Origin: Candidatus Pacebacteria bacterium CG_4_9_14_0_2_um_filter_40_15
GTDB lineage: Bacteria; Patescibacteriota; Microgenomatia; UBA1400; PJMF01
Length of the DNA: 64,000 nucleotides
Direction of reading: 5' to 3'
NCBI GenBank assembly: GCA_002788675.1
Contig: PFRS01000005.1
Location: forward strand, 314,635-378,634
Both the position numbers and the translations under genes were made by a program. The notes under the pieces were generated by a model. The model had not been told where the DNA came from, searched no databases, and worked only from the letters and a program-made list of their open reading frames with translations. Positions 2,367 through 46,770 of the stretch are shown piece by piece (within the stretch, counting starts at the first letter, position 1; each line of letters starts with the position of its first letter).

Positions 2367-2396
2367 TTATATTAAAAACAGATGAATGTTATTCAT

Positions 2397-2421: not shown

Positions 2422-2554
2422 ATTTCGTATAACGATAATAAATGCGCGAGCCCTCTTGGCCCGCGCATTAAAATTGTGTCTGACCGACACCACATTTGAG
2501 TCTGAGAAAGCACAAATGTGTTTTGAACTAACAAAGAGGTACTACGCTCCTCAG

Positions 2555-3088
2555 TTAGTTACCGTGCATGCCCATTCCGCGGCCGGCACCTGAGCCATCT
2601 CCGCGACCTGCACCGGGGCCACCTTTCCCTTCACCAAGTCCCATGGGACCTACTAAAGAGATATCAATGCCTTGCTCTGATGCCCATGCTTCCATTTCGG
2701 AGCGGTGGGCGTCGCGGTAGGCGTCGCGTTCTTCAGGTGATGCGCTCAATAAAGCCTCGTGGTCTGCCTGCATTTCTTCATGCTTTTGTATTATGGCATC
2801 TGCCTGTTCTTGAGTAAGAGAACCATCTTCAACTTGAGTAGCTAAATGCTCTTCAAACCGTGATTGCATCGCGAGTTGATGCTCAACACGATATTGTGAA
2901 AATACTTCTTCTACTTCGCTCTCATTCAACCCAAACCGATCAGCGATTCGCTGGATGAGGGGAAGTCCGCGCTCGTTTTCCATAGCTTGAACCGTTGTAG
3001 CGGAAAAAGATCCGACTGCTAACAGTCCTGCTAAGGCAAGAGCTGGAAGAATGATTTTTTTGCTGTGCATAGATATTCCTTTCAGCAA
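2555..3088 (-). CDS. periplasmic CpxP/Spy/ZraP-family (LTXXQ) stress protein with Gly-rich C-terminal tail
   Basis: It has a signal peptide (ILPALALAGLLAVGSFSA) and an all-helical acidic body with an LTQEQ motif. The tail GPGAGRGDGSGAGRGMGMHGN is Gly/Met/His-rich like ZraP. It sits directly next to a two-component system, as cpxP and zraP do. Confidence 0.45.
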   Translation of the reverse strand: MLKGISMHSKKIILPALALAGLLAVGSFSATTVQAMENERGLPLIQRIADRFGLNESEVEEVFSQYRVEHQLAMQSRFEEHLATQVEDGSLTQEQADAIIQKHEEMQADHEALLSASPEERDAYRDAHRSEMEAWASEQGIDISLVGPMGLGEGKGGPGAGRGDGSGAGRGMGMHGN

Positions 3089-3152
3089 AACTATTTACTA
3101 CTAAGATGAAGTATAAGCAACTAAACTGAGAAAGAGCTTAAAACACAACAAA

Positions 3153-4220
3153 TTACTTTTGAGTAAGTGGCAATGAGACAGTAAAGGTGCTACCAGTACC
3201 GAGAGTACTTGAGACGGAAATAGAGCCTCCATGAGTCTCAACAATTTCCTTTGCGACTGCTAAACCAAGACCAAAACCTGCCTTATATTGTTGTGTTCTG
3301 GCAGTATCTACCCTATAAAATCGATTAAAGATGCAAGGTAATTCCGATGAACTGATACCTTCTCCTGTATCCTTAATCATCAATATGCATCGTCGACGTG
3401 ATGTTTTTAAAATAACATGTACTGAACCAGAAGCTGTATATTTTATTGCATTCTCAACTAAAATAGTAAGTAACTCTTGAATTTTTTCTTTATCAGCCTG
3501 AAGCTGCACACCTGCGCCCAACACTTCCAGATCTAATTCTTTTTCATCCGCAAGAGGTTTGAGCAAAGTCACCACTTTTTGCACTAATGGCTTAACCTCA
3601 AAAGTGCTAAAAGTAATTCTATGCCTGTTTCCTTGATACATTGTTAGTCGAAGCAGCTTATCAACAAGATACTGCAAGTTATCTACCTGTTCTAAAGAAG
3701 TTTCCACCACTTCTGAAACTTCTGTCTCAGAATGTTTTTTCTTTAATAAAAATACTTCCAATAGTATCTTTAGCGCTGTCACCGGAGTTCTCAGTTCATG
3801 AGAAGCATCAGCCACAAATTTCTTTTGATCTTCAAGTGCCTTTTGTATTGGTCCCAAGGTTTTACCTGCCAATAACCAACCTGCAAAAATAGCAAAAAGG
3901 GCTAAGATCGCGTTAATAGAAAATAATTGCCAAATAACAGACTCTTTTGCAACTTGAAGATCTTCAGTAAGTAACTGACTTTTTACAATGTGCTGTAAAC
4001 GAGGATCATCAAGCGTATCTAGTTGCTGACGCCAATGTGGAGGTAAGGCAATTCCATGTTCTTCAGCAAGCACACGTACTTTTGCTCGAGCAAAACTTCG
4101 TTCAAGCTCAACAGTAAATGAAAAATAGAGGGCTGTACTAAATAAAAGACTAATTGCCATTATGGTAAAGAGATACCAAATGGTCAATTTCATTCGAGCA
4201 GAATGGAACATTCCAAACAT
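3153..4220 (-). CDS. sensor histidine kinase
   Basis: Two N-terminal transmembrane segments are followed by the HisKA H-box ADASHELRTPVTAL and the HATPase_c blocks DTGEGI and GGFGLGLAVAKEIV. Confidence 0.85.
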   Translation of the reverse strand: MFGMFHSARMKLTIWYLFTIMAISLLFSTALYFSFTVELERSFARAKVRVLAEEHGIALPPHWRQQLDTLDDPRLQHIVKSQLLTEDLQVAKESVIWQLFSINAILALFAIFAGWLLAGKTLGPIQKALEDQKKFVADASHELRTPVTALKILLEVFLLKKKHSETEVSEVVETSLEQVDNLQYLVDKLLRLTMYQGNRHRITFSTFEVKPLVQKVVTLLKPLADEKELDLEVLGAGVQLQADKEKIQELLTILVENAIKYTASGSVHVILKTSRRRCILMIKDTGEGISSSELPCIFNRFYRVDTARTQQYKAGFGLGLAVAKEIVETHGGSISVSSTLGTGSTFTVSLPLTQK

Positions 4221-4222
4221 TG

Positions 4223-4909
4223 TTATTCTTTCTGGTCTTCTTGTATTGTATATCCAAAACCGCGCACCGTTTTTATAAAGGTAGGTTTACTGGAAAAAGG
4301 CTTCTCAAGTTTCGCTCGCAAGTAACCAACATACACTTCAACCGTATTTGGTAACACATCAGCATCAAATTCCCAAACTGCTTCAAGTATCTGATCTTTT
4401 GAAAGCACTCTACCCGCATTTTTAAGCAAATACACAAGCAATGAGAACTCTCTTTTTGAAAGGCTAATCGGGACATCATCCCGCAACACTGTCATAGCGG
4501 CAGTATCTACCCGTACATCATCATATTCTAGCACTTCATGTTGAAATGCCTTTTGTCTTCTAGCCAATGCCTGAACACGAGCTACTAACTCTGCAAATTG
4601 AAAAGGCTTCACAAGATAATCATCAGCCCCCGTCTGTAAACCACCCACCTTATCTTCAAGCGATCCTCGTGCTGTTAACATGAGAATTGGAGTGGTATTC
4701 CCTTCAGACCGTAATTCTGAACAAATCTCCATACCATTTTTTCCAGGAAGCATAAGATCTAAAAGTATCACATCATACGTTTCATTTATGGCTAAATCAA
4801 ACCCATCTAAACCATCGTAAGCTACATCCACAGCATACCCATGCGTCTGTAAACCTTTCTGAATTGACTCAGCAATAGTGTGATTGTCTTCGACAATAAG
4901 CAGTTTCAT
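4223..4909 (-). CDS. OmpR/PhoB-family response regulator
   Basis: The receiver domain (MKLLIVEDN...ILLDLMLPGKNG...) is followed by a winged-helix trans_reg_C domain (VEVYVGYLRAKLEKP...IKTVRGFGY). The start is set at MKLL rather than the longer ORF. Confidence 0.85.
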   Translation of the reverse strand: MKLLIVEDNHTIAESIQKGLQTHGYAVDVAYDGLDGFDLAINETYDVILLDLMLPGKNGMEICSELRSEGNTTPILMLTARGSLEDKVGGLQTGADDYLVKPFQFAELVARVQALARRQKAFQHEVLEYDDVRVDTAAMTVLRDDVPISLSKREFSLLVYLLKNAGRVLSKDQILEAVWEFDADVLPNTVEVYVGYLRAKLEKPFSSKPTFIKTVRGFGYTIQEDQKE

Positions 4910-5085
4910 ATGTGTACTATAGTATACCGGATTACTGAGAAAAACCTGAATGAGCTTTTTTTGACTGATGTATAGGTGTGTTTTACACACAGATTGCAGT
5001 GGTAATTTAAAAGTAAAAGTGATATACTACGTTTCTGCCTAAAACCAGGCTTCGTCTTGGTTTTTTTAGTTCTAGGAAGACATTT

Positions 5086-6918
5086 ATGCAAATGCTAAAA
5101 ATTCGAAACATTGCCGTTATAGCTCACGTTGACCATGGAAAAACAACTCTTGTGGACGCTCTCTTAAAGCAAACACACGTATTCCGTGATAATCAAAAGG
5201 AAATGAGTGAAGATCGTATTCTGGATAGTAATGACCTCGAGCGAGAACGCGGAATTACAATTTTGGCAAAAAACTGTGCAATCGATTACAAAGACTACAA
5301 AATCAACATCATTGATACTCCAGGTCACGCAGACTTTTCAGGTGAAGTTGAGCGAACCCTTTCAATGGCAGATGGAGCCCTGCTCATTATCGATGCGCAA
5401 GAAGGCCCAATGCCACAATCACGCTTTGTGCTTAAAAAAGCATTAGCTCTTGGATTAAAAATTATAGTTGTTGTTAATAAAATTGATAAACCTTTTGCCC
5501 GAACTGAGAAAGTTCTTGCAAAGGTAGAGGATCTATTCTTAGAGCTTGCTCAAGATGAAGATCAACTCCACTTTACTACCCTGTATGCAATTGCCCGAGA
5601 AGGTAGTGTTTTTACAGAAGTTCCTGAAGATTTAACACAAAAAGGAGATGTTACCCCACTTCTTGAGAGAATCGTCTCAGAAATTCCTGCTCCTCAAGTA
5701 AATCAAGACGGCCCATTCAAGATGGTTGTCTCAACTATCGATTACGATAAACATCTTGGTCGTATCAGTATTGGCCGTATCTCTCAAGGAACTATCCATC
5801 GTAGAGATACAATTATTGTGACTGATACTCCAACCAAAACTCACTCTGTAGAGCATCTTATGCTCTCTCGAGGTCTTGGACGTTATGAAACTGAAGAAGC
5901 TCAGGCTGGTGACATCGTCGCACTGACTGGTGTTTCAAATATCACCATTGGTCAGACACTTTCTGATCCAAGTGATACCACTTCACTCCACACTATTGAA
6001 ATTTCAGAACCAACGCTACATATGCAAATGGGTTCAAACTCATCTCCATTTTCTGCTCAAGAAGGTGACTTCACAACAAGTCGTCAACTTGAAGAGCGAC
6101 TAGAGCGAGAACTTGAAAGTAATCTTTCACTTCGTGTTGAAAAACTCGACGGGGGTCAGTTTAAACTTTCTGGTCGAGGTGAATTACACCTTTCTATTCT
6201 TCTTGAAAACATGCGCCGTGAAGGCTATGAAATGGAAGTAAGTAAACCTGAGGTTATTACCAAAAGGATTGATGGCATTCTTCACGAACCTATAGAAGAA
6301 GTAAGTATCATTGTTCCAGAGGAATTTAGTGGTGCAATTAATCAAGAACTCGGTAAACGATACGGTGAAATGCAAAAAATGGAATCAGTTACTGATACAG
6401 AAGTTGAATTTACCTATAAAATGGCAAGTCGAGCTTTAATTGGTCTGCGAAGTACGCTGCTAACACTCACAAAAGGCACTGCCTTAGTAAGTAGTCAATT
6501 TATCGCCTTTGAGCCAATGGGAAAACAAATTCCACAGCTGCGAAATGGTGTCCTTATCTCATCAGAAACTGGTGATGTAACTGCGTATGGACTCAATGCT
6601 GCCCAAGGCAGAGGTGTAACCTTTGTTAAACCAGGTGATACTATTTATGAAGGTCTTATTGTTGGTGTAAATGCTAAAAAAGAAGACATTGAAGTTAATG
6701 TCTGTAAGGGTAAAAAACTTACTAACATGAGAACTTCTGGTAGTGATGGTATTATCTCAATTATTCCACCACTTGAAATGAGTCTCGAGCAGGCGCTCGA
6801 ATTTATTGAAGACGATGAATTACTTGAAGTTACTCCTAAATCTATTCGTGTTCGTAAGAAAAATCTTACAGCAGTAGACAGAAAAAGACAAAAACGCAAA
6901 GAGCGAGAAACTAACTAA
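5086..6918 (+). CDS. typA: translational GTPase TypA/BipA
   Basis: IRNIAVIAHVDHGKTTLVD, DSNDLERERGITILAK and DTPGHADF match the BipA sequence pattern nearly residue for residue. The length is 610 aa. Confidence 0.9.
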   Translation: MQMLKIRNIAVIAHVDHGKTTLVDALLKQTHVFRDNQKEMSEDRILDSNDLERERGITILAKNCAIDYKDYKINIIDTPGHADFSGEVERTLSMADGALLIIDAQEGPMPQSRFVLKKALALGLKIIVVVNKIDKPFARTEKVLAKVEDLFLELAQDEDQLHFTTLYAIAREGSVFTEVPEDLTQKGDVTPLLERIVSEIPAPQVNQDGPFKMVVSTIDYDKHLGRISIGRISQGTIHRRDTIIVTDTPTKTHSVEHLMLSRGLGRYETEEAQAGDIVALTGVSNITIGQTLSDPSDTTSLHTIEISEPTLHMQMGSNSSPFSAQEGDFTTSRQLEERLERELESNLSLRVEKLDGGQFKLSGRGELHLSILLENMRREGYEMEVSKPEVITKRIDGILHEPIEEVSIIVPEEFSGAINQELGKRYGEMQKMESVTDTEVEFTYKMASRALIGLRSTLLTLTKGTALVSSQFIAFEPMGKQIPQLRNGVLISSETGDVTAYGLNAAQGRGVTFVKPGDTIYEGLIVGVNAKKEDIEVNVCKGKKLTNMRTSGSDGIISIIPPLEMSLEQALEFIEDDELLEVTPKSIRVRKKNLTAVDRKRQKRKERETN

Positions 6919-7129
6919 CTTTCACTTTAATTGGTACTTCATCTAACTCTATACCGTCATACTTAGCTATCGCTTGGTATGCTGCCATTGGTGGCATCTG
7001 AAATTCTACACAATGTTGGGCATGAGCCCCTGAATATTTAAATTGGGTGACTTCACCCAATTCTTCAAACATTTCAATTATGTCATTTTTAGACATGCTA
7101 TTAGGTAGTGCACAGACATGGACTCTCAT
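6911..7129 (-). CDS. small RRM-like RNA-binding protein (putative)
   Basis: The 72-aa protein has an RNP2-like stretch (VHVCALP), an RNP1-like stretch (AQHCVEFQM) and a beta-alpha-beta pattern ending in IKVKVS. Its stop overlaps the typA 3' end by 8 nt, in convergent orientation. Confidence 0.35.
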   Translation of the reverse strand: MRVHVCALPNSMSKNDIIEMFEELGEVTQFKYSGAHAQHCVEFQMPPMAAYQAIAKYDGIELDEVPIKVKVS

Positions 7130-7186
7130 AATGCTCGATTTTATACTTATTTTTTCTCCATAAAAAGTAGGAATATCTAGTATCTG

Positions 7187-8194
7187 TTACTTGGTCGGCG
7201 GGACCTCAACAGGATGTGCATTAACCCATTCATAGATATGTTTTGAGAGTTGTTCAAGCTGTGGTATTGCAGATCTTAGTTCTGGCAATGATTCAGATGC
7301 GGAGCTTACACATAACAGATACGGATTTTCAGGATGAAATACAATCTGACACTGATTAAAACGAAACTTCTCATGTGCCTCTGGTGGTGGATCATAATAA
7401 CCAAATTTGCTTGCTACTTCAATTTCATTGGGTATGCCAGCTACCAGCCCCATTTTGTACTGTGACTGAGTAAGTAATGACAATGCCTTTTCAGAGTTCA
7501 CCCTATTTAAATAACTAGCATTGTATAACATTCTAAACATATTAGAATAATCTTTAAGTGAAATTTCACCATCAAATTCCATGTGAGTCTGTTGCTCAAA
7601 TGATTGTAAAAAATCTGGATAATGCTTGTTAAGAATGTACTGTAATGAAGAAGCTGACTCATTATCAGAATACTTGATCATACGAGCGACCAGATCAGAT
7701 ACTGTATATTTTTTGCCATTTTCTAAAACCATATCTTTATATTCTTCAGTATCTAGATTGCGAGCAAAAAGAAACTGATTAGCATATAAAAATTCTTCAT
7801 CTAATAATGCTGGATACTCTTCTGATTTTTTATACACTGCTAATAGTATCAATACTTTACTAAGACTTGCCGGTGCAATTTTTTCGTTTTCGTTTATACC
7901 AAGCCATAATCCAGTACGCAAATTTCTATAATAAACATTAGTGGCATCACGCAGATGCAGTTGTTCCATTTTTGTAGTGATTTCTGTATCTAGTGCTTGT
8001 AACCTTGGCGACATGATATCAGCGTCACATTCAAGTAACGGCTCAATGTATCTATGACCAGTTTCTCTAATTTCCCGATAATCAGATAAAACAGTCTTTG
8101 ATGATTCAGATTGGTTCTTCCTTCCAAAATACAGTAACAAAGGAACTGATCCAAAAAGTACACCAACTAAAAATAAGATGAGATTTTTTTTCAT
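7187..8194 (-). CDS. class A beta-lactamase-related serine hydrolase (PBP-like fold)
   Basis: After the signal peptide come the SxxK motif (ASLSKV), the SDN motif (YSDNES) and a KTG-like motif (SKFGY). Confidence 0.55.
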   Translation of the reverse strand: MKKNLILFLVGVLFGSVPLLLYFGRKNQSESSKTVLSDYREIRETGHRYIEPLLECDADIMSPRLQALDTEITTKMEQLHLRDATNVYYRNLRTGLWLGINENEKIAPASLSKVLILLAVYKKSEEYPALLDEEFLYANQFLFARNLDTEEYKDMVLENGKKYTVSDLVARMIKYSDNESASSLQYILNKHYPDFLQSFEQQTHMEFDGEISLKDYSNMFRMLYNASYLNRVNSEKALSLLTQSQYKMGLVAGIPNEIEVASKFGYYDPPPEAHEKFRFNQCQIVFHPENPYLLCVSSASESLPELRSAIPQLEQLSKHIYEWVNAHPVEVPPTK

Positions 8195-32529: not shown

Positions 32530-33426
32530 CTAATCTTTCAAAGATGATATATCAATGCTTTCGGAAATATCACCTGGGTTTAAATCTAATTGAAAATATT
32601 GACTTCCGTCACTGCCTTTTGAATTTATTTCTATTTCTAAATTAACTGGCTTCTCATTAATAGTGATAAAAAGATAGTCATTGAAAAAAAATGCACCTTG
32701 CTCAGGCTTGATTTCAGAAATATCACAGCTTGCAAGTCTGTCAGAACATTGAATGTTTGTTCTGTAATTTCTAGTAATGTCAATATTAGGTAAAAATGAA
32801 GACAATCCCATTAAATAATTGTCACAAGTCGGCGTAGGTTTTTCTGGTAAATTTAAATCATAAATAGAGTCCTTAATATATCCCTCTGAAAGCCTTGCAT
32901 TTATTGATATACGTTCATCGTACCTATCTGAGTTAACCTTTAGCATAAAACAAATAGTATTTTTACCACTCTTGAAATATGAGTCCAATCTTTCAATATA
33001 ATCTTGAAGCAATTCGATGTAATCGGCTACATCTTGCCTTGATTTAATTCCATCAAAAGGAAATCTGATTAATGGATTAACTAAATTTGGTAGTTCTTCT
33101 TCCAATTCTTGAATCTCATCTTTAATTGCCCGCACTGTCTCTTCGGCTGTTAACTTATAAAAACTTGCATCTATTTCAAACTTTGTAGTTGAGTTTTTAC
33201 TCTTTTCATTTGCAATATATTCTTTTCTCCACACATTATATATGGATATAAAAACAATGATTATTAAATAATAATTAGTCAGACTTTTGGGTAAAGTATA
33301 TGCGTCACCATTGCTGATATAAACAGAAATAAAATCATAAACAGATGGGAGCAACAATGCCAAATTTGACCACTGCAAAAAAACTCTACTGATAAATATG
33401 TAAATTTTAATAATTTCTTTCTTCAT
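32530..33426 (-). CDS. hypothetical membrane protein, last gene of island cargo operon (possible effector)
   Basis: 298 aa with two N-terminal TM helices (LALLLPSVYDFISVYI and YYLIIIVFISIYNVW), then a coiled coil and an Asp/Ile-rich C-terminal domain. Its start overlaps the upstream gene's stop (ATGA), which implies translational coupling. Confidence 0.45.
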   Translation of the reverse strand: MKKEIIKIYIFISRVFLQWSNLALLLPSVYDFISVYISNGDAYTLPKSLTNYYLIIIVFISIYNVWRKEYIANEKSKNSTTKFEIDASFYKLTAEETVRAIKDEIQELEEELPNLVNPLIRFPFDGIKSRQDVADYIELLQDYIERLDSYFKSGKNTICFMLKVNSDRYDERISINARLSEGYIKDSIYDLNLPEKPTPTCDNYLMGLSSFLPNIDITRNYRTNIQCSDRLASCDISEIKPEQGAFFFNDYLFITINEKPVNLEIEINSKGSDGSQYFQLDLNPGDISESIDISSLKD

Positions 33427-35249
33427 AATTTCTCAAGTTCATTTTTCAAAAAATAGGCAGCAGACATGTGGTTTTTTGCAATGCTTTTATCTAAATCTCT
33501 ACTTAGCACTCTCTTACTTCTTCTTTCTATATCTCTGCTCAATCTATGTTTTAGTTCAATTAAATTTTCATTTTCTGTTCCTTCAAACTTAAACTTTAAA
33601 AAATGACATCCAGTGATTACATATACCTTTTCATCCAATCCTGCTTCCTCTTGGCTTTCCCACAAAGCTTTTGGGAAAGGTGCGCTCATATTTATTGTCT
33701 TATTAAAAAATAACTTAGCTACATTTACAGCATCAGTATTTTTTACAGATTTAACTGTTCCAATATAAGTTGATGCGCCCCCGTAAATGAAATTACTTGA
33801 AAGCACATGATTTGAGATGCAAGCATTATTAAAAACAAAAGGAAAGGACTCTGGGTCAGACAAACTTGAAAATGATGGAATAAAGTTCTTTGAAACTCCT
33901 TTTGTAACTATTACATTACAATAATTTACGTTTTTCACTTTTCTCTGTTTTAAAACTTTCCAATCTTTTCTCTTCAACTTTGAGAACTCTGACACTATTT
34001 TTTTCGATGAACCCGGTTTATAAGTTTTCTCATACCATGGGCTTCCATCTAACTCTACAAATTCATAGAAGCTTTTAACATTAATTATGGCATCTTCACC
34101 TGTCCCAAAACCTGTGGGTTCGAAGGAATCTATAGCATCAACCACTATGACATGCTCACAGCCTCTACTATCAACAAACTGTATATCAAACCTTTGACCT
34201 TCTGGAAGTCCTCCATGACTACATATAAACAATAAATCGTAGGGATAAAACTGAATAGAATTGCTTAATTCGTAGTTTGTAAATTGATTATCCCAAAACT
34301 CTTTGGTAATAACTTCTTTTTGAGCCAACAAGTCACTCACATCATCTGTTTCAGAATCAGAAAAGAATCCAGTATCTACGAGAAGCGCTGATTTCACGAT
34401 TATTTCAGGGTTTGCTATTGATTCAGCGATAAAGTAGCCAGGCATTATTCGTCCTAAAATATGAGTTGATGCAATATTAGGATAGAAATAACCATAAGGA
34501 ATTTCATCAGTATAAAATGTCACAAAATCATAAGCTTCGATTTCACCAAAGTCCGCATCTAGCTCTGATTTTATACTTGCATTAATTTCTCTAGCTACAT
34601 CGCCTCTCGCTTCATTTGAATCATTATCAAAAATCAAAGCGGCAATTTCTTTAGAGGAATATTCTAAATCTGTTTGTATGAATTTAATATCAGCGTTAAT
34701 GGAAAACGCATAGTTAGCAACTATGACAGGAGACAACTCATCATCAATATCGTAATAAACACAATGCTTACTTGTTTGTTTAAATGAATATTTATAATTA
34801 GCTTTATTCGTAATTACCAATCTTTGTTTGTTCTTTTTTGCTATTAAAAGTGCTTGAGCAACTTTCTGTTTTTCTGGCTCACATTCTAAATTCCCCTCAA
34901 ACACAATATTCATTGGTTCTGCGATTTCCGACTTTATTTGAGATTTTTTTGTTACTGTTATGTATCTTTCTTCTGGAATTCGCAATTGGTCTTTGATGAT
35001 TTTAATGTATTTAGGATTAACACCCGCAAAAATACATATCTCAGGCCTAATCTTAGCCAAAATATTGTTTAGCTTTATTAATTCGTTACTCCAGTCATCT
35101 CTCAAAAACCTTGGTAATTCAAAAACACAAAAATAATCATTTGGTTCATAAAAACAACTTGATATTTGAGCAGCTAATATATGGTTCCCACTTATACATA
35201 TAACTTTATTTTTTATTGTCGGTGCGTTATCTGAATAGCTATGCATCAA
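33423..35249 (-). CDS. large hypothetical protein with caspase/CHAT-like His-Gly and Ala-Cys motifs (tentative protease)
   Basis: 608 aa. LLFICSHGGLPEG has the hydrophobic-x-S/G-H-G pattern of caspase-fold His. About 130 aa downstream, FVFNNACISN has the hydrophobic-A-C-x-S pattern of the caspase-fold Cys. There is no P-loop. The function is inferred only from these motifs. Confidence 0.4.
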   Translation of the reverse strand: MMHSYSDNAPTIKNKVICISGNHILAAQISSCFYEPNDYFCVFELPRFLRDDWSNELIKLNNILAKIRPEICIFAGVNPKYIKIIKDQLRIPEERYITVTKKSQIKSEIAEPMNIVFEGNLECEPEKQKVAQALLIAKKNKQRLVITNKANYKYSFKQTSKHCVYYDIDDELSPVIVANYAFSINADIKFIQTDLEYSSKEIAALIFDNDSNEARGDVAREINASIKSELDADFGEIEAYDFVTFYTDEIPYGYFYPNIASTHILGRIMPGYFIAESIANPEIIVKSALLVDTGFFSDSETDDVSDLLAQKEVITKEFWDNQFTNYELSNSIQFYPYDLLFICSHGGLPEGQRFDIQFVDSRGCEHVIVVDAIDSFEPTGFGTGEDAIINVKSFYEFVELDGSPWYEKTYKPGSSKKIVSEFSKLKRKDWKVLKQRKVKNVNYCNVIVTKGVSKNFIPSFSSLSDPESFPFVFNNACISNHVLSSNFIYGGASTYIGTVKSVKNTDAVNVAKLFFNKTINMSAPFPKALWESQEEAGLDEKVYVITGCHFLKFKFEGTENENLIELKHRLSRDIERRSKRVLSRDLDKSIAKNHMSAAYFLKNELEKL

Positions 35250-35252
35250 TTT

Positions 35253-35924
35253 TTAATCCTGTCTCTCTTGCCAAGGGGCTATATTGCTCTCCCCAGTTTC
35301 TTCTGTTCTTACTTCTCTAGGACTAATGACCTCTTTACTAAAAACAATATCTGGTAAATCATATTTCTTATCGTATTCAAATGCCTCTTTTCCAACGTTA
35401 ATTTCAAAAACAGATGTTGTGGGGTTTACTACAACCAACTCAGCAATTGTATCCGGGTGGTTTCTCACATTCCTAACTGCCCATATTGGATAATCTATTA
35501 ACTTCTCATTTGCATACTTCTTTATCTCTTCATAATCAACACCATCTGTAGTAAATAAATGTACAAGCATCAAATATTCTGAAGAATAAGCTCCGCTCAA
35601 TTTCCTAGTCCTAATGAGCTGTTCAAGCAAAGACTCTTTAGATTTACGATAGCTAGTTAATTCAATAGTGGTTATATCCATTGACACACCATTTGGCTGC
35701 ATGAGATATGCATCTGGCGGGTCTTGCAGCGGCATTCGTAGATAAGTTGGCAAACCTCTAATTTTACTCAACACAAACGCTGCTATTGCAGCAATTCTAG
35801 ACTCTCTGACTACCTTATTCTCAGGTTTTATTAAAGCCCCAACACCTTGCTCCTGTTCAAATTTTTGAATATGCATGAATGTGTTTGTCGGAGAATGCCA
35901 TCTTTTATTAAATTGTCTTTTCAT
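35253..35924 (-). CDS. hypothetical protein (island cargo operon)
   Basis: 223 aa with no recognisable motif. It is tightly packed between neighbours, with a 4-nt gap to the downstream gene. Confidence 0.4.
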   Translation of the reverse strand: MKRQFNKRWHSPTNTFMHIQKFEQEQGVGALIKPENKVVRESRIAAIAAFVLSKIRGLPTYLRMPLQDPPDAYLMQPNGVSMDITTIELTSYRKSKESLLEQLIRTRKLSGAYSSEYLMLVHLFTTDGVDYEEIKKYANEKLIDYPIWAVRNVRNHPDTIAELVVVNPTTSVFEINVGKEAFEYDKKYDLPDIVFSKEVISPREVRTEETGESNIAPWQERQD

Positions 35925-36023: not shown

Positions 36024-36836
36024 CTATCCCTTAGCAATTGCGTCAGCCCAACTGTATTTATCATCTTTGTAAATCTTTTTCATTTTTCTATCAAAATCTC
36101 TCCAATTTTTTACCAACTCTGGCATCTCAATCTTTTGTTCGTGAGGAAGTCCTATATCTGCATTGAAATTTAGCGGATTAATTTGAAAACCATTTTTTGT
36201 AACTAGTGCAATCTGCAAATGTTTGCTCACACCCGGATGAGGATTTCTAAAAACATCGTATGACAATACAACTCCCAATACCTGTGCGTAACCAAATTGA
36301 TTTCCTACCTCCATCTGCATAAGCTTCTCAGGCTCACTATGAATTCTTTCCAAATCATCTAGATAGACTTGCTTATTGTTACCACTTCCAATCGATAAAG
36401 GACTATGCACCCTTGAAGCTTCATACTCAAAACTGGGTGCTTTTAACTTCGCTACAAAAGACTTTGGTTGTCCTTTACTCCCATTATCTGCTATAGGGTC
36501 TACTGCAACTATAATCATGGAGAACGGTCTTTTCTTTTCTTCAGGAAGCTTTGAGTATAGTTCTTTCGCCCTTTTACCCCACTCTCTGGCTAATTGGTCA
36601 GGAATCCATCCTCCTTTACTCCTGGATGACATAAAGTCCCTTAAGGCTTGAGTAAACATAAACCCTGTTTCTATATCACCACTAAAACCAGACATAGCAA
36701 ACTCACCTACTGGATATATTTTTTGAACAACATCATGGAAATCTTCTTTACCATCAGGGAAAGATACAGTAGCTTGAACATCAGAGATTAAAACACCATA
36801 GCCAAACATTGTAGGAATACCAATAACCCAAGTCAT
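36024..36836 (-). CDS. proteasome beta-subunit/Anbu/HslV-like Ntn-hydrolase (Thr1 peptidase family), putative
   Basis: The N-terminus MTWVIGIPTMFGYGVLISDVQATV has Thr at position 2, which would be the nucleophile once Met is removed. It continues as hydrophobic-G...GxVL(I/A)(S/A)D..(A)T with Asp about 17 residues after the Thr. QKIYPVGEFAMSGFSGDIETG then parallels the proteasome SKIhhI.....hGsGAGD block around Lys33. The length is 270 aa. Confidence 0.5.
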   Translation of the reverse strand: MTWVIGIPTMFGYGVLISDVQATVSFPDGKEDFHDVVQKIYPVGEFAMSGFSGDIETGFMFTQALRDFMSSRSKGGWIPDQLAREWGKRAKELYSKLPEEKKRPFSMIIVAVDPIADNGSKGQPKSFVAKLKAPSFEYEASRVHSPLSIGSGNNKQVYLDDLERIHSEPEKLMQMEVGNQFGYAQVLGVVLSYDVFRNPHPGVSKHLQIALVTKNGFQINPLNFNADIGLPHEQKIEMPELVKNWRDFDRKMKKIYKDDKYSWADAIAKG

Positions 36837-36870: not shown

Positions 36871-37179
36871 TTAAGAACTTAAGTATTGCTCTTTACACTC
36901 TTTGCGAAGATTATCTCTGCCGTTTGATGTTGCATCATATAATCTTGTGCAATCTTCTCCCTCAAGTCCATTATTCTCACAAGCTCTAGGAAGTGCTTCT
37001 ATGTTGTTAGAGTACCATTCTTCAGCTTTACCTAAGCAGGATTCATATTGTTCCTGTCTGTCTTTTAGAGCCTCTTCCTCTTTAATTTTATCCTGTCTCC
37101 ACATAATGAATATTCCTAATATCGTGAACGAAATTATTAATGCTGCGATTACAAGTGAATTTATTTTTTTCATATTCAT
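36871..37179 (-). CDS. small membrane-anchored Cys-rich protein, first gene of cargo operon
   Basis: An N-terminal TM helix (LVIAALIISFTILGIFIMW) is followed by a charged domain with four cysteines. Confidence 0.4.
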   Translation of the reverse strand: MNMKKINSLVIAALIISFTILGIFIMWRQDKIKEEEALKDRQEQYESCLGKAEEWYSNNIEALPRACENNGLEGEDCTRLYDATSNGRDNLRKECKEQYLSS

Positions 37180-37233: not shown

Positions 37234-37455
37234 TTGATGGAAGAAAAGCAAAAAGTAACAGAACTAGTGGGAGATGAAATTCGAAAACACAGAGAAGAAT
37301 CTGGTCTTTCGCAGGAAGAACTTTCAGCAAAAGCTGGTTTATATAGAACCTATGTTGGTCATGTAGAAGTAGGTCGTTACACACCTTCAATCTATACTCT
37401 CTTCAAGATAGCCAGAGCTCTCAAAGTTAAAGTCTCAGAAATAATACCCTTTTAG
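37234..37455 (+). CDS. XRE-family helix-turn-helix transcriptional regulator
   Basis: The HTH_3 core is LSQEELSAKAGLYRTYVGHVEVGRYTPSIYTLFKIARALKV. Confidence 0.7.
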   Translation: MMEEKQKVTELVGDEIRKHREESGLSQEELSAKAGLYRTYVGHVEVGRYTPSIYTLFKIARALKVKVSEIIPF

Positions 37456-37633
37456 TGGGAAAAGACCCCTTATTCCCATATATGGAAAAAACTTTCTCTT
37501 TAATGAGAGAAGGTTAATAGCCTATGGGGGGGCTGGACATGGTAAAAACCCACCAAATAATTTCTGATATTGCAGTCTCAGCTCAAAAATTCGCACTAAA
37601 TTTTGTACTCGTATCTTATACAATATAGTTAAT

Positions 37634-38323
37634 ATGAGTATGATTATGGATAATGAAGAACTACATGAAGCTATTGCAGACTTTAGCATGAGTGAGCTTA
37701 GTGAAGTGAAAGACTTACTGGTTGAAATTATCTCAAGTTACAAAAACTTTCATAAGGATGAACTGGCATTTAGTATTCAAGTTGATACTAAAAAAAAGAG
37801 AACTATTTACCTTTTAGAAGGTTTACTATCACATGCTGATATCTACTACACTCCAAGCACATTACGATGGTCTAAAGATGGTGAATACTTAGTTGATTTT
37901 GGTGCAAAGGATGGTGATTGGCTTGAATACTCAGCAGTATCTACACTAGAGCAAATACGAAAAGCAATTAATGACAGACTTGTAAATCAAGCTGATTCAA
38001 AATTGAAGCTATCAACCAAAAACAACTTGATTCATATTGTGCATTACAGAAAAGATGGCTCAATAGTTACAGCAAAAATTTTAGGAAATTCTAATAGTGG
38101 AAAAATTTTAAGTTCTTTGAGAAAGAATTCAGCGATGACTCTAAGTGAATTATCTAAAGTCATGAATGAACCAAGAAAACATGCCGATAGTCCTCTTCCA
38201 GAAAAGAGAGTCCACGATGCCATCAAATACATTAGAGATAAACTCAAAATTGAAGCTAACTCACCAAATGACATTTTCAATATCGTTGGCAAAGAATGCC
38301 AGCTAATCATTCCTACTGAATAA
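37634..38323 (+). CDS. hypothetical protein with C-terminal OmpR/PhoB-type winged-helix DNA-binding domain
   Basis: The C-terminus RVHDAIKYIRDKLKIEANSPNDIFNIVGKECQLI parallels the trans_reg_C recognition region (VDVHIRRLRKKL....I.TVRGVGY.L). There is no receiver domain. Confidence 0.4.
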   Translation: MSMIMDNEELHEAIADFSMSELSEVKDLLVEIISSYKNFHKDELAFSIQVDTKKKRTIYLLEGLLSHADIYYTPSTLRWSKDGEYLVDFGAKDGDWLEYSAVSTLEQIRKAINDRLVNQADSKLKLSTKNNLIHIVHYRKDGSIVTAKILGNSNSGKILSSLRKNSAMTLSELSKVMNEPRKHADSPLPEKRVHDAIKYIRDKLKIEANSPNDIFNIVGKECQLIIPTE

Positions 38324-38421
38324 ACTTCCATAACTTCCGAAAAAATCCGACAAACTCTTGGCTAAATTGCTAAGAGTTTTTTGTTTTTAACCGAAGTAAA
38401 TTACTAGAGAATATATCTAGT

Positions 38422-38670
38422 ATGAAGAACAAAACGAATTATTATAGCTCTGATTTATCACTGGTCACTACTCTTTCTTTAGACTTTCCAATCATTGGAA
38501 TAGATAGAAGAAATCCATCTAGGATTATCTTTGAATTTGAAAGCTCTAGAGAATTATCCGCCCGAATAAAAGAATACTGGAATGCTGAATTATTTATTGA
38601 GCCACAACGATTTTTTACACAACTAAAGTATATAAAAGCACAAGTATTTGGGAGGCCTAATGCTGAGTAA
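38422..38670 (+). CDS. hypothetical protein
   Basis: An 82-aa ORF in the island backbone. Confidence 0.3.
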   Translation: MKNKTNYYSSDLSLVTTLSLDFPIIGIDRRNPSRIIFEFESSRELSARIKEYWNAELFIEPQRFFTQLKYIKAQVFGRPNAE

Positions 38671-38836
38671 TAAATCAGTAATCAGCCTCCAGCAAGTCAT
38701 GAACGAAGATGGTTTACATCTAAACCAAGAAGAGACAAGGTCTCTTGGTGAGTTGTTAGTCAGTATAGGACTTCAATTAAAAATGAGTATTAAAAATAAT
38801 AATGAATATGAAAATAAAAACACAAAGCGTAGTTGA
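38648..38836 (+). CDS. hypothetical small protein
   Basis: A 62-aa ORF that overlaps its neighbours. Coding status is uncertain. Confidence 0.2.
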   Translation: MGGLMLSNKSVISLQQVMNEDGLHLNQEETRSLGELLVSIGLQLKMSIKNNNEYENKNTKRS

Positions 38837-39644
38837 TACTGCACACTATTTTCTATCACAACGAGTAAGCATTATTCCTGTCACAAAAGACAAGAAGCCG
38901 TATGCAGGGTTTAGTTGGGATGCATATAAAAAACGCTTTCCCACTCAGGATGAAATAGATATCTGGTTTAGATATGTATATCCAAATGCAAATTTAGCCA
39001 TAGTAACTGGAGCGCTTTCAAAACTAATAATACTAGATATAGACCCCAGAAATGGTGGTGATATATCTTTGTTAAAAAACAATAAAAGCCCATCAGTTTC
39101 AACACCAAACAATGGAAAACACATATATTTCAGACCAACTAACCTTGTAAAATCTGCCAAGCATAGTGCACTAGGATATGACCTACTCTATGAAGCTTTA
39201 GCTCTTGTCCCGCCCTCCCTTACAGTAAATGGTGCATATGAATGGATAAACTCATTTAATAGAAATAACATAGAAGAGTTTCCAAAATATTTACTTAGCA
39301 AGCTAGAACTCATTCAACCTAAACAGAATGAAGCTTCTGCCAAACCACTTAGTCAAAAAAAAGGCAATCAAAAAACTCAGTTAAGAGGTATTGAGGTTAG
39401 GCACGCACGAGATTATCCCCTAGATAGATTGCTATTAAGTGATGGTGTAAATCTCATCCAACGAACAAATAGCTACCACCTTACCTGCCCATTTCATAGT
39501 GATAGGAAGTCTTCAGCTGTTTACTATCCATCCACCAACTTGGTTTATTGCTTCAAATGTTCAAGAGCATTTAATCCAATTGATTACCTAACGATAGCAA
39601 AAGGTTATTCATTCAGGGAAGCCTTAAAGGAATTAACAGAATGA
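38802..39644 (+). CDS. bifunctional primase-polymerase (Prim-Pol) N-terminal domain protein with CHC2 zinc finger
   Basis: The N-terminus IPVTKDKKPYAGFSWDAYKKRFPTQDEIDIW...NLAIVTG...LIILDID matches the Prim-Pol pattern (PVxxxKxP....W.......#....W......NhGhhhG...hhhhDhD). The C-terminal CPFHSD...CFKC is a CHC2 DnaG-type zinc finger. Confidence 0.6.
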   Translation: MNMKIKTQSVVDTAHYFLSQRVSIIPVTKDKKPYAGFSWDAYKKRFPTQDEIDIWFRYVYPNANLAIVTGALSKLIILDIDPRNGGDISLLKNNKSPSVSTPNNGKHIYFRPTNLVKSAKHSALGYDLLYEALALVPPSLTVNGAYEWINSFNRNNIEEFPKYLLSKLELIQPKQNEASAKPLSQKKGNQKTQLRGIEVRHARDYPLDRLLLSDGVNLIQRTNSYHLTCPFHSDRKSSAVYYPSTNLVYCFKCSRAFNPIDYLTIAKGYSFREALKELTE

Positions 39645-40051
39645 AAAGCAAGGCATTAAGAATAAAAGAAAAGAGAACAAAAGGTTTTCTTAAATTTCCA
39701 AGAAAACTTATTGAGCTTGTTCTCAGTGGAGATGTATCTGATAGAGCTTTCAGTCTATACCTGGTTATTATCAACCTTGCTGTTTATTCTGAAAATAGTT
39801 CCTACTATGGATGCCTTGAACTTAATCCTCATAACCTTTCAGAAATTTTCTCTAAATCTTCAAATACAGTTAGCAAAAACTTTAATGAACTTCTCTCACT
39901 TGGTCTCATTAACAAAGTAGACAAAGATTTGATTGAGGTTATCAACTTCAAAAAACTGTTTGATGATACTCAATATATGGAGGAAGCTTCCTCAGATTTA
40001 GTTAATAAAGTTTCAAAAATGAGAGGAGAAATATCACATATGAAAAGCTAA
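39641..40051 (+). CDS. hypothetical protein (island backbone)
   Basis: 136 aa. It overlaps the Prim-Pol gene by 4 nt. Confidence 0.35.
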   Translation: MKSKALRIKEKRTKGFLKFPRKLIELVLSGDVSDRAFSLYLVIINLAVYSENSSYYGCLELNPHNLSEIFSKSSNTVSKNFNELLSLGLINKVDKDLIEVINFKKLFDDTQYMEEASSDLVNKVSKMRGEISHMKS

Positions 40052-40175: not shown

Positions 40176-41780
40176 ATGAAAGATAATATGAACAATAAAA
40201 ACATAGCTGCACTCTGGTGCAGAGTAAGCAGTCCAGACCAAGAAACTTCTGGGTATTCACTACCTGCTCAGGAAGAACTTTTAAGAGAGTACGCTACACG
40301 AAAAGGAATTCAAAAGGTTGATTTTTTCTCTGTTTCAGAAAGTGCTAAATCTAGTCAAGTAAGAGCAAGTTTTAAAGAGCTGTTCAGCCATGTAAAAAAA
40401 CATAACATCAATATAGTAATTTGCGAAAAAGTTGACAGATTAACCAGAAACTTTTACGACATGATAATGATTGATGAATGGCTTGAGAAAGACCATGAAA
40501 GAGAAATACACCTCGTAAAAGATTCGCTAGTTCTTCACGCTGGCTCTCGTTCTCAGGATAAATTAAATTGGAACTTAAAAGTTTTATTAGCAAAAAATTA
40601 CATTGATAATCTCAGAGAGGAAGTTAAAAAGGGTCAACTGATGAAACTCAAGCATGGCTGGCTACCAACTAGACCTCCATATGGTTATAAAACTGAAGGA
40701 AACAAGGGGCACAAAATTCACGTCATAGATAATGAAACTGCACCAATTGTAAAGAAACTCTTTCAACTCTACTCAACTGGCAACTACTCACTTAAAGCCA
40801 TTACAGAAAAAGCAAATGAGCTTGGTTTAAGAAGTTCAAAGGGTAATCCAGTTGTTAAAAGTAGAATACACAAACTGCTTCAGGATAAGTTCTACATTGG
40901 CATTAATATTTGGAATGATACTGAGTATCCTGGTAAACAAGAAACATTCATCGAGGAAGAATTATTCTACCTGGTGAAGAGGGTTATGAAAGGTGGCTTT
41001 AACAATACACGCACTTACTCAAAGCATAACTATCTTTTTAGAGGAATGTTTAAGTGTGAACACTGTAAAGGCACAATCACCTGGGAAGAACAGAAAGGTA
41101 TTGTGTATGGTCACTGCAACCACTACAAACCATGCCCCTCAAAAGATTGGGCTCGTGAAGATTCTGTCGAAAAGCAAGTTAAAAAGTCATTAAAGTCACT
41201 GGTAATAAAAAACAAGCGAGTATTAAACTGGCTAAGAGATGAACTGAGCACACGCATTCATGAAGAAACTGATGTATATGTAGCTTCAATAGAACAACTT
41301 AAAAAAGACTTAGTGCTCACTGAAAGGGCTCAAGAGCGACTCTATGATGACAAGCTTTATGAACGTATCCCTGAGTCAATGTATGACCGAAAGGCAAATG
41401 AGTTTAAGAATAAGACTAAGAAGCTAGAGAAACAAATAAAGGAGCTCTCTGGTGGCACTGATAAAGCTAGACAGGTCGGACTAAGTATCTTTGACCTTGC
41501 ACAAGGTGGTCATATCATTTATGAAAAAGCTGATATTGAGAAACGTCAGCTACTTTTAAAACTGGTATATAAAACAAGAGAAATTTTCGAGGATACTTGT
41601 AGCTTAGAGTATACGGAAGAAATGGCATTACTATTGAAAGCAGTCAACCAGACTAATCGTTCGAAACTGGTGAAAAAAGTTGAGAAAATGGAAGCTACTT
41701 TCGAACCATCTGAAAAGATTGATTTAGCAAGAAAAAGTGACTCTTTTATGTCCTTGCGGACTGGTTTGCTCCCCCGGTAG
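40176..41780 (+). CDS. large serine recombinase (integrase)
   Basis: It has a resolvase-type catalytic domain whose nucleophile Ser lies in LWCRVSSPDQ and a conserved DRLTRN. A recombinase domain follows, then a zinc-ribbon (CEHCKG...GHCNHYKPC) and a C-terminal coiled coil. Its stop codon at 41778..41780 lies inside the tRNA-Asn 3' end. Confidence 0.85.
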   Translation: MKDNMNNKNIAALWCRVSSPDQETSGYSLPAQEELLREYATRKGIQKVDFFSVSESAKSSQVRASFKELFSHVKKHNINIVICEKVDRLTRNFYDMIMIDEWLEKDHEREIHLVKDSLVLHAGSRSQDKLNWNLKVLLAKNYIDNLREEVKKGQLMKLKHGWLPTRPPYGYKTEGNKGHKIHVIDNETAPIVKKLFQLYSTGNYSLKAITEKANELGLRSSKGNPVVKSRIHKLLQDKFYIGINIWNDTEYPGKQETFIEEELFYLVKRVMKGGFNNTRTYSKHNYLFRGMFKCEHCKGTITWEEQKGIVYGHCNHYKPCPSKDWAREDSVEKQVKKSLKSLVIKNKRVLNWLRDELSTRIHEETDVYVASIEQLKKDLVLTERAQERLYDDKLYERIPESMYDRKANEFKNKTKKLEKQIKELSGGTDKARQVGLSIFDLAQGGHIIYEKADIEKRQLLLKLVYKTREIFEDTCSLEYTEEMALLLKAVNQTNRSKLVKKVEKMEATFEPSEKIDLARKSDSFMSLRTGLLPR

Positions 41781-41840
41781 GATTCGAACCTACAACCTAC
41801 CGGTTAACAGCCGGGCGCTCTGCCATTGAGCTACAGGGGA
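41769..41840 (-). tRNA. tRNA-Asn (anticodon GTT), CCA not encoded
   Basis: A hand-folded cloverleaf on the minus strand has a 7-bp acceptor stem (UCCCCUG/CGGGGGA), a D-arm (GCUC-AAUGGCA-GAGC), the anticodon loop CUGUUAA, a T-arm (GUAGG-UUCGAAU-CCUAC) and discriminator G. Confidence 0.8.
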
Positions 41841-46149: not shown

Positions 46150-46770
46150 GCTACAGAAAACCCCAGGCTTTCAAGCCTGGGGATGAATGGCAGTTGAGGC
46201 GAAAGCCGAAACTGCTATCTTGTATACTTGATGCATGACTAGAAAATACTGGACGGGAGCTCATACAACACATCGGTTGAGATTTCATATAGTTCTTTTA
46301 CCAAAATACCGCAGGAGAGTGCTCAAAGGCAAAATAGCTACTAGAATAAAGCAATTGTTCTATCAGGCGTGCCAGATGAATAAGTGGTGGATAGATGAAA
46401 TAAATCTCCAGCCAGATCACCTACACATGTTAATCCAGATAAAACCAAGGGAATCAGTGTCAAGTGTGGTGCAGTTACTCAAGGGAGGGAGTAGTAAGGT
46501 GATCAGGGTAGAGTTTCCAGATTTGGAAGAATATTTATGGGGAGATAGTTTTTGGTCAGATGGCTATTTTGCCGAAAGTGTGGGAACAGTAAACGAAGAA
46601 ATAATTAAGCAGTATATTAAAAACCAACATGCAGCAAGTATTGAGGGCGATTAGCCCTCATGCATGAAGCTCCGGCTTTTAAGCCGGAGAGACTGTTCAC
46701 TTTATATGCATCTAACATACTCAATGAAGTGCTGGTACCATTTGCGCCAGGCATTCTGCCTGGCGCAAAC
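46150..46770 (+). mobile_element. IS200-type insertion sequence (IS200/IS605 family, tnpA only); extent approximate
   Basis: The Y1 HuH transposase gene is flanked by subterminal perfect hairpins. On the left is ccccaggc-tttcaa-gcctgggg at 46161..46182. On the right are gagggc-gatta-gccctc, ctccggc-ttttaa-gccggag at 46670..46689, and gcgccaggca-ttc-tgcctggcgc at 46744..46766. Confidence 0.6.
46235..46654 (+). CDS. tnpA: IS200/IS605-family Y1 transposase TnpA
   Basis: The HuH motif is HLHMLI, and a conserved N-terminal H is present (HRLRFHIVLLPKYRR). The catalytic Tyr is in WSDGYFAESVG. Confidence 0.85.
   Translation: MTRKYWTGAHTTHRLRFHIVLLPKYRRRVLKGKIATRIKQLFYQACQMNKWWIDEINLQPDHLHMLIQIKPRESVSSVVQLLKGGSSKVIRVEFPDLEEYLWGDSFWSDGYFAESVGTVNEEIIKQYIKNQHAASIEGD

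Follow-up and report, generated by a model that had tools for sequence, protein, structure and literature searches.

Proteasome-type proteases are textbook self-compartmentalising machines. Prokaryotes also hold many orphan relatives of these proteins without known function or context, as the 2021 survey of Fuchs, Alva and Lupas makes clear (PMC8665760). The gene described here lies in a 64,000-nucleotide (nt) stretch of contig PFRS01000005.1 from Candidatus Pacebacteria bacterium CG_4_9_14_0_2_um_filter_40_15, referred to throughout at its full length as the window, where it occupies positions 36024..36836 on the minus strand. It encodes a 270-amino acid (aa) protein of an unnamed family related to HslV. 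The protein is predicted to be a propeptide-less Thr1 N-terminal nucleophile (Ntn) hydrolase of the proteasome superfamily because its catalytic residues are conserved, the family profile matches HslV in register, and the modelled fold matches 20S beta subunits; it is referred to below as the Ntn protein. We consider it probable, short of firmly established, that this is an active, propeptide-less Ntn peptidase from an uncharacterised HslV-related family, carried as a single-gene passenger in a genomic island and independent of the neighbouring module encoding a CHAT-family protein.

In proteasome beta subunits the Thr1 nucleophile is aided by Lys33 and Asp17, Gly47 provides the oxyanion hole, and Ser129 forms a hydrogen bond with Thr1 (PMC5777263, PMC8665760). 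Among the bacterial relatives, HslV is a subunit of ~175 aa that ends after strand S10 and is encoded in a housekeeping heat-shock operon. Anbu and BPH have neither a propeptide nor an adjacent ATPase, and removal of the start methionine to expose Thr1 has been shown for both by mass spectrometry and crystal structures (PMC5666114, PMC5777263). Frequent operon partners of Anbu are an ATP-grasp protein, Alpha-E and a transglutaminase, and the long C-terminal helix of Anbu forms a dimer interface (PMC5666114), while the compact BPH subunit of ~200 aa carries an elongated, highly acidic pore loop after helix H2 (PMC5777263). C-terminal elements beyond S10 are described for beta, Anbu and 'group II' proteins and not for HslV or BPH (PMC8665760).

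The Ntn gene has an ATG start, and its product begins with the residues MTWVIGIPTMFGYGVLISDVQATVSFPDGKEDFHDVVQKIYPVGEFAMSGFSGD; the complete protein starts as MTWVIGIPTMFGYGVLISDV and continues to QKIYPVGEFAMSGFSGD. Met1 and Thr2 are encoded at 36831..36836 on the minus strand, with no propeptide ahead of the threonine (codon 36831-36833), which is the predicted N-terminal nucleophile. Asp19 (36780..36782, minus strand), 17 residues past Thr2, aligns with the HslV Asp and is the equivalent of proteasome Asp17, and Lys39 (36720..36722, minus strand), inside QKIYPV, aligns with HslV Lys33 and corresponds to proteasome Lys33. The stretch Gly50-Phe-Ser-Gly53 (36678..36689, minus strand; family consensus GFAG, with GFSGD as residues 50-54) corresponds to the GFAG of HslV, within its AGFAGS motif, and to the Gly47 oxyanion-hole region of beta subunits. 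Further downstream, Ile149-Gly-Ser-Gly152 (36381..36392, minus strand) aligns with IGSG of HslV and is equivalent to the proteasome Gly-Ser129-Gly motif, the serine of which hydrogen-bonds Thr1. The last part of the gene (36027..36173, minus strand; about residues 222-270) encodes a C-terminal extension that is absent from HslV, as judged by the end of the global alignment to HslV near residue 202, by secondary structure assigned to the model with DSSP and by conservation. A first-pass annotation of this DNA had pointed to the ORF (open reading frame), the Thr directly after Met, an Asp 17 residues beyond it, the Lys in QKIYPV and the GFSGD block, all of which were located in a check of the codons. 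An identical (100%) protein is deposited as 'hypothetical protein' from Candidatus Pacebacteria, a bacterium of the candidate phyla radiation (CPR), in several assemblies.

A word-indexed homology search returned three sequences in all, with two relatives at 37% identity. Built into a profile and searched exhaustively against 1.84 billion representative proteins, these three expanded the family to 708 clusters at E<=1e-3, with 248 also passing E<=1e-30. Almost all members are 255-275 aa long (median 266 aa) and match from residue 1, so that 270 aa is a typical length, and all carry the source name 'hypothetical protein' save for a single JGI label, 'HslVU peptidase subunit'. In an alignment of 153 homologues, with ungapped rows counted for each column, the residues of the predicted active site are strongly conserved: Thr2 in 135/136, as is Trp3 (135/136), Asp19 in 151/152 and Lys39 in 153/153, together with Gly50 (146/153), Phe51 (151/153), Gly53 (153/153), Ile149 (149/153), Gly150 (153/153), Ser151 (120/153) and Gly152 (153/153). 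Conservation of Thr2, Asp and Lys and similarity to an Ntn-hydrolase family were the two points on which the first-pass annotation had staked its proposal of a proteasome-type Thr1 hydrolase, and both were found.

The family is, as read from its N-termini, without a propeptide. The start Met-Thr-Trp is present in 211 of the 252 family sequences (Met-Ser-Trp occurs once), and in all 225 carriers of the motif TW[VI][VI]G the start-codon residue stands immediately before the Thr (Ser once). Fourteen sequences have an apparent N-terminal extension, and every one has Met or Val right before the Thr, which indicates that these are over-extended gene calls.

Relatives of greater length (300-460 aa), or with two stretches that match the profile, also occur (P0012, P0017, P0117, P0202), and a 346-aa relative on the Salmonella enterica plasmid pRSE21 (L140:6001-7041) matches the profile only through query residue 152. 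The C-terminal domains of these long relatives may differ.

The sequence relationship to known proteins was examined with a profile from 112 family members. HslV chains are the first matches of this profile in the PDB (E=1.4e-5 to 3e-2), while 20S chains lie further away (beta E~0.1, alpha E~1.3). The HslV matches are in register with the predicted active site, with SD(19) on GD, K(39) on Lys33 and GFAGS on GFAGS. A global hhalign comparison with E. coli HslV (E=1.4e-4), which illustrates the register only, pairs MT with MT, Asp19 with Asp17, Lys39 with Lys33, GFAG with GFAG and IGSG with IGSG, and ends near residue 202. The corresponding comparison with a single T. acidophilum beta sequence gave no match (E=0.45), and the sequence-level link therefore runs via HslV and not directly via the beta subunits. 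Comparison with PF00227, which had been put forward as a check, gave a divided result: the Ntn protein finds nothing in Pfam at E<=1 and so does not reach the PF00227 gathering threshold, while 33/112 members have sub-threshold matches (best E=2.6e-4); that threshold is a criterion of library sensitivity and not a structural one. Likewise, 31/112 members have sub-threshold matches to the NCBIfam HslV models (best E=6e-5), with essentially nothing else matched.

An AlphaFold2 model built without templates from the 112-sequence alignment has a mean predicted local distance difference test score (pLDDT) of 95.2 and a predicted template-modelling score (pTM) of 0.92; a model from a 3-sequence alignment was unusable (pLDDT 46). 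In a Foldseek search of the PDB the top 50 matches are all 20S proteasome subunits, mostly beta, with E values of 2e-8 to 1.5e-7, probability 1.00 and target-normalised template-modelling (TM) scores of 0.53-0.74. The 20S beta subunit (PF00227, MEROPS T1) is thus the best structural match, with TM up to 0.74, and shares the order of elements and the catalytic residues with the Ntn protein; sequence similarity between the two is only marginal (family profile E~0.1 to beta chains), and the Ntn protein has no propeptide and no alpha subunit partner.

Secondary structure assigned to the model with DSSP shows an alpha-beta-beta-alpha sandwich whose strands and helices follow one another as in a beta subunit, including the helix after S10. 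Strands 3-8 and 14-19, the second of which ends at Asp19, are followed by a hairpin (21-35), a strand at 40-44 right after Lys39, and a strand at 47-54 that holds the GFSG loop. Helices H1 (55-70) and H2 (79-95) lead into a short loop of mixed charge, SKLPEEKKRPFS, after which strands spanning 105-150 end in IGSG. Helix H3 (156-167), an extra short helix (169-176) and H4 (182-197) precede strands 207-213 and 216-221. The family-specific C-terminal region, roughly 222-270, contains two short strands, a helix at 245-255 and a terminal strand around Ala266, with Met238-Pro239, Ala242 and Ala266 conserved; the helix is 11 residues long in the monomer model. As judged from sequence and model together, the Ntn protein joins HslV-like active-site motifs with C-terminal elements of the kind known from beta, Anbu and 'group II' proteins (PMC8665760).

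HslV is the nearest relative by sequence (PDB profile E=1.4e-5), is likewise bacterial with an N-terminal Thr nucleophile, and has its Asp17, Lys33, GFAG and IGSG motifs in register with those of the Ntn family. A divergent HslV working with an HslU-type ATPase encoded elsewhere in the genome could account for these similarities, and would fit both HslV as the best match in the sequence libraries and the JGI label. The differences from HslV are nevertheless substantial, and make this a very improbable explanation. Family members do not reach the curated HslV cut-offs (TIGR03692, NF003964) and lie far below them, and the Ntn protein itself has no match; it is ~90 residues longer, with a C-terminal extension of ~65 residues where HslV ends after S10, it has the extra short helix between H3 and H4, and Trp3 is invariant in its family. 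No hslU or AAA+ gene adjoins it in the window and no neighbour recurs in 57 loci (see below), and its distribution is patchy, accessory and linked to mobile elements, in contrast to the housekeeping hslVU operon.

The length of 270 aa, which is nearer to that of Anbu than that of HslV, had led the first-pass annotation to place the protein near Anbu or BPH. The Ntn protein resembles both in having no propeptide, no adjacent ATPase and no dedicated unfoldase, and in a Thr1 that would be exposed by Met removal (PMC5666114, PMC5777263), and the model has elements after S10, including helix 245-255, that HslV and BPH lack (PMC8665760). That the Ntn protein is an orthologue of either is extremely improbable, however, and this assignment did not hold up. 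Searched against the PDB, the family profile reaches HslV, beta and alpha chains but no Anbu or BPH chain at E<=10, and the sub-threshold NCBIfam matches are only to HslV models. No ATP-grasp, Alpha-E or transglutaminase partner of the Anbu type is present in the window, and none appears either as a recurring neighbour of the Ntn loci or in the 25 Pfam families most frequent around them. The predicted C-terminal architecture also appears to differ from that of both proteins, with a modelled helix of 11 residues followed by a terminal strand against the long helix needed for the Anbu dimer (PMC5666114), and the loop SKLPEEKKRPFS after H2 is short and of mixed charge in contrast to the long acidic pore loop of BPH, itself a smaller protein.

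The main alternative as regards chemistry is that Thr1 serves something other than bulk proteolysis, with the protein acting as a sequence-specific transpeptidase or ligase, or as an amidohydrolase on a small molecule or one defined protein, in monomeric or dimeric form instead of a chamber. Connectase shows that this fold supports ligation (PMC7980362; see also PMC8665760). The invariant Trp after the nucleophile, the conserved C-terminal extension, which has no counterpart in the chamber proteases HslV and BPH, and the absence of an unfoldase partner would suit such a role, and extensions and insertions in many of the newly described homologues may be incompatible with stacked rings (PMC8665760). 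The hallmarks of connectase, which has lost helices H1 and H2 and gained two helices between S3 and S4 (PMC8665760), are however absent from the Ntn model, which keeps helices 55-70 and 79-95 and has only the short beta hairpin at 21-35, and HslV, the nearest protein by sequence, is a chamber protease. We regard such a role beyond bulk proteolysis as unlikely. Identification of the Ntn protein as HslV, Anbu, BPH or connectase was in each case considered and rejected, on cut-offs, length, sequence, partners or architecture.

The 2021 survey describes 22 subfamilies of uncharacterised proteasome homologues, DPH, RPC, PPH, CPH, AAH, WPH, PHI, ACC, PMI-1 to PMI-6, PHD, FC1 to FC5, DAH and GPH, some of which also associate with phages or mobile elements (PMC8665760). 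The Ntn family fits this class of orphan prokaryotic homologues, with which it shares the conserved Thr1/Asp17/Lys33/Gly47 set, the absence of a propeptide and of an AAA+ partner, and an uninformative gene context. Its HslV-like motifs and bacteria-only distribution resemble the survey's 'group I'; the element that separates H3 from H4 and the S12/H5-like elements near the C-terminus resemble what is described for PMI and group II proteins. Group I proteins (such as BPH, AAH, CPH and PPH), in contrast, are compact, without C-terminal elements, RPC has no H2 and occurs in Proteobacteria alone, and PMI-3 and PMI-4 have long pore-loop insertions (PMC8665760), whereas the Ntn family has H2, a short pore loop, a C-terminal extension and members in many phyla. 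When compared by description only, no single subfamily fully fits. None of the recovered family accessions is among the survey representatives (for example WP_137109689.1 of PMI-2, HDY66466.1 of PMI-4 and WP_035979212 of AAH). Members such as the Bradyrhizobium sp. STM 3809 protein were nevertheless in the nr database before the survey's August 2020 snapshot, and the family may thus be one of its clusters. Within the literature library searched, no later paper characterises such a protein, and no connection to defence or CPR bacteria emerged.

The genomic contexts of the family were collected with a degenerate DNA pattern for MTW[VI][VI]G...GFxG run over 185,579 species genomes. It gave 119 stretches, 46 of which contain a full-scoring family gene and the remainder of which are chance matches; 11 loci from exact-protein look-ups bring the set to 57. 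Confirmed loci are numerous in Acidobacteriota and are also present in Chloroflexota (Anaerolineae, among them the cultured Leptolinea sp. HRD-7), Alpha-, Beta- and Gammaproteobacteria, Planctomycetota, Verrucomicrobiota, Omnitrophota, Gemmatimonadota, Bdellovibrionota, Thermodesulfobacteriota and the CPR (Pacebacteria, Peregrinibacteria, Peribacteria). Cultured organisms with a homologue include Bosea (WP_311910582.1), Afifella (WP_128290817.1) and Vibrio (WP_064487246.1). The family is widespread among bacteria and patchily distributed. No neighbour recurs in the 46 pattern loci by BLAST clustering, with no neighbour cluster common to more than three, and the adjacent same-strand ORFs of the 57 loci are unrelated even at phmmer E<0.01, save between near-identical genomes. 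The Ntn gene is a self-contained single-gene module. An archaeal distribution was considered and found unsupported, as both archaeal contigs are among the chance pattern matches and do not carry family genes.

These contexts are heterogeneous, and often mobile or variable. Some Ntn homologues reside in islands of hypothetical genes with a tyrosine integrase no more than a few kb away, and in one such locus the homologue adjoins a PIN-TPR-GreABC conflict-type protein. One homologue is in a prophage-like region, one adjoins HigB/HigA and one immediately follows smpB. The Bradyrhizobium homologue adjoins a Bil (ubiquitin-like) system, a pair of helix-turn-helix (HTH) and M78 genes and a pair of AAA and S8-peptidase genes. 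A copy on a Vibrio coralliilyticus plasmid adjoins an IS3 transposase, and a longer variant is present on Salmonella plasmids near toxin-antitoxin (TA) genes. Apart from 4 tyrosine integrases, a TrwC relaxase and two PtuA-like ATPases, the 148 nearest neighbours are unrelated housekeeping genes. In phage genomes no family member was found by tblastn, and fold matches in BFVD are only to distant proteasome-like phage proteins at 10-17% identity.

These settings raise the possibility that the gene is a mobile single-gene effector of conflict or defence, activated by infection or directed against phage or plasmid proteins, which is the main alternative as to its role and would be compatible with the peptidase explanation set out above. 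In its favour are the cargo position in an integrative element adjoining the CHAT module, the HigBA, PIN-TPR-GreABC, Bil, HTH/M78 and AAA/S8 neighbours and the integrases just listed, the patchy occurrence across phyla with plasmid copies, and a stand-alone organisation like that of many defence genes. Against it, PADLOC gave no match, defence models recognise only a few of the 148 neighbours, several loci lie among housekeeping genes, and the literature searches found no published test; a defence effector is accordingly possible but unlikely. A more specific version is that the Ntn family constitutes a conflict module of one gene that has gone unrecognised and is disseminated by integrative elements and plasmids; with the C-terminal extension as a gate, the protein would destroy phage or plasmid proteins or trigger abortive infection. 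We offer this as a speculation of low probability, taken with all its parts. If true, it would be the first proteasome-type immune effector in bacteria and would give a first biological role to the orphan proteasome homologues of Fuchs et al.

Several of the homologous loci have further features. In the Bradyrhizobium-type contigs L122-L124 a dense defence-type stretch occupies positions 1-7700 upstream of the Ntn homologue and comprises BilA ubiquitin-like, BilB-like and BilD_N genes, the HTH/Peptidase_M78 pair and the AAA ATPase with an S8 subtilase. In Bradyrhizobium diazoefficiens SZCCT0138 (L109:3413-4317) the family gene is split into two adjacent ORFs, each of which partly matches the profile; this copy is frameshifted and probably decaying, consistent with an accessory gene, and an S8 gene is upstream of it as well. 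About 5.4 kb upstream of the homologue in another contig (L127:1606-7001) has no called gene.

Returning to the explanation that we prefer, an active propeptide-less peptidase, the predicted mechanism would follow that of the proteasome. We infer that methionine aminopeptidase removes Met1, after which the free alpha-amine of Thr2 would act as the base and its hydroxyl as the nucleophile. Lys39 and Asp19 would tune the protonation of these Thr2 groups, the Gly50/Gly53 loop would form the oxyanion hole, and Ser151 of IGSG would position the Thr. The analogy with HslV and BPH suggests that the protein probably gains activity only as a homo-oligomer, in stacked rings or a related assembly. The C-terminal extension probably determines how the subunits assemble or how the active site is reached; together with the invariant Trp that follows the nucleophile, it is the likeliest determinant of specificity or assembly. 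As no ATPase or other gene travels with it, the protein probably acts on peptides, unfolded proteins or a single specific target unaided by a dedicated unfoldase.

A number of observations weigh against this explanation. As a single query the Ntn protein has no match in Pfam, NCBIfam, PHROGs, PADLOC or the PDB (phmmer), and with single-protein scans of the libraries empty the assignment rests on the profile and fold evidence. Ser151 is swapped for Cys, Asn or other residues in ~20% of members. Neither Anbu nor BPH showed proteolytic activity on model substrates in vitro (PMC5777263), so that the term 'peptidase' is not guaranteed even for proven relatives, and connectase demonstrates that this fold can act as a ligase (PMC7980362). 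Several loci resemble ordinary chromosome, and the association of the family with mobile and defence genes is anecdotal and suggestive only.

The existence of another orphan proteasome homologue will not surprise a specialist. What the locus yields is a cleanly defined family of ~700 clusters with a high-confidence model, an intact predicted catalytic set and no propeptide, which no library among Pfam, NCBIfam, PHROGs and PADLOC names. Its recurrent position as a lone gene in integrative elements, on plasmids and near TA or defence genes is a context that the 2021 survey did not report, and the stand-alone position in mobile and variable regions is a testable lead to function for orphan proteasome homologues. 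If the protein is only a housekeeping-like peptidase, the result is still a new family model that replaces 'hypothetical protein' across ~700 clusters.

In the window a ~9-kb integrative element lies at a tRNA-Asn gene, with the Ntn gene as a self-contained passenger in its cargo. The tRNA-Asn (GTT; 41768..41840, minus strand; ARAGORN) marks the right-hand boundary and is the probable integration site. Beside it is a gene for a large serine recombinase, or integrase, of 534 aa (40176..41780, plus strand), with Resolvase, Recombinase and Zn_ribbon_recom domains and a match to the integrase family phrog_95 (E=2.6e-72), and the 3' (stop-codon) end of this gene overlaps the 3' end of the opposite-strand tRNA gene by 13 nt. 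A regulation and replication module (37234..40051, plus strand), recognised by Pfam, NCBIfam and PHROG matches, encodes an XRE-type HTH protein (37234-37455), a 229-aa protein, a DUF5659 protein, a PrimPol (38802-39644) that bears a DnaG zinc ribbon and, at 39641-40051, a protein similar to a phage replisome organiser. The G+C content of the stretch that holds the Ntn gene is low, at 0.32-0.36 versus 0.40 or more to the right of ~41.8 kb. The recombinase, PrimPol, HTH regulator, tRNA gene and drop in G+C together confirm the earlier suggestion that the gene is mobile-element cargo. No repeat of the tRNA-Asn 3' end that could be an attachment site is present elsewhere in the window, as is expected of a serine recombinase, and a suspected tRNA remnant at 32.43 kb has no similarity. 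The left end of the island is estimated at ~32.4 kb, between the gene for a CRP-like regulator and a 298-aa gene. The gene arrangement of the island is identical across all contigs of this Pacebacteria population.

The cargo genes run divergently from the HTH gene and lie close together in the order 102-aa gene, 34 nt, Ntn gene, 99 nt, 223-aa gene, 3 nt, 608-aa gene, 4-nt overlap and 298-aa gene. The 102-aa gene (36871..37179, minus strand), upstream of the Ntn gene, encodes a protein with an N-terminal hydrophobic segment and a Cys-containing charged tail, with weak PHROG matches to Rz-like spanins (E~5e-3). Downstream is a tightly spaced three-gene module (32530..35924, minus strand) made up of the 223-aa gene (35253-35924), the 608-aa gene for a CHAT-family (caspase-like) protein (33423-35249) and the 298-aa gene (32530-33426). 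The three window proteins themselves have no Pfam match; PF12770 CHAT is present in more distant homologues of the 608-aa protein, one of which carries the annotation CHAT-domain protein. Around the cargo genes, scans for promoters and terminators were uninformative, with fewer hits than shuffled sequence.

The first-pass annotation had treated the Ntn gene and a second putative protease as parts of one cargo operon. The second protease is a reasonable reading given the CHAT family of its homologues; a functional link between the two is another matter. A two-protease system, in which the Ntn hydrolase and the CHAT protein are co-regulated or act on one another, is suggested by the common strand, the close spacing, the recurrence of the arrangement in every contig of the population and the CHAT domain in homologues of the 608-aa protein. 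The homologues of the CHAT protein at 47-52% identity, however, lack a nearby Ntn gene, whether they stand alone or beside a 298-aa partner: in CPR contig L138 the 608-aa homologue adjoins a homologue of the 298-aa protein (36% identity) and a different upstream gene of 470 aa, and another homologue is a stand-alone protein of 844 aa. Conversely, relatives of the 102-, 223-, 608- and 298-aa proteins are present in 0/57 Ntn-homologue loci, and the 99-nt gap before the trio stands against the tight coupling within it. We therefore consider a two-protease system improbable. Since the CHAT and 298-aa genes recur elsewhere without an Ntn gene, the 'operon' is better read, from these comparisons, as a juxtaposition of two cargo modules, in which the Ntn gene would be functionally independent of the CHAT module.

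About a third of the close CHAT homologues are 840-849 aa long and have an unrelated N-terminal extension; the idea that the 844-aa homologues are fusions with the 223-aa protein was rejected on test.

At the right-hand boundary of the island, one 34.8-kb contig (L132; ena:ERZ27293386 k141_134178) ends ~330 bp past a YibE/F gene, at the tRNA-Asn/island junction, where other contigs of the population continue into the island. This end could reflect heterogeneous presence of the island or an assembly break. About 4.5 kb to the right of the island, between genes for a sigma-70 factor and glutamate dehydrogenase, lies an IS200/IS605-type Y1 transposase gene (window 46235-46654; L130:6535-6954), identified as PF01797 from the matching contigs.

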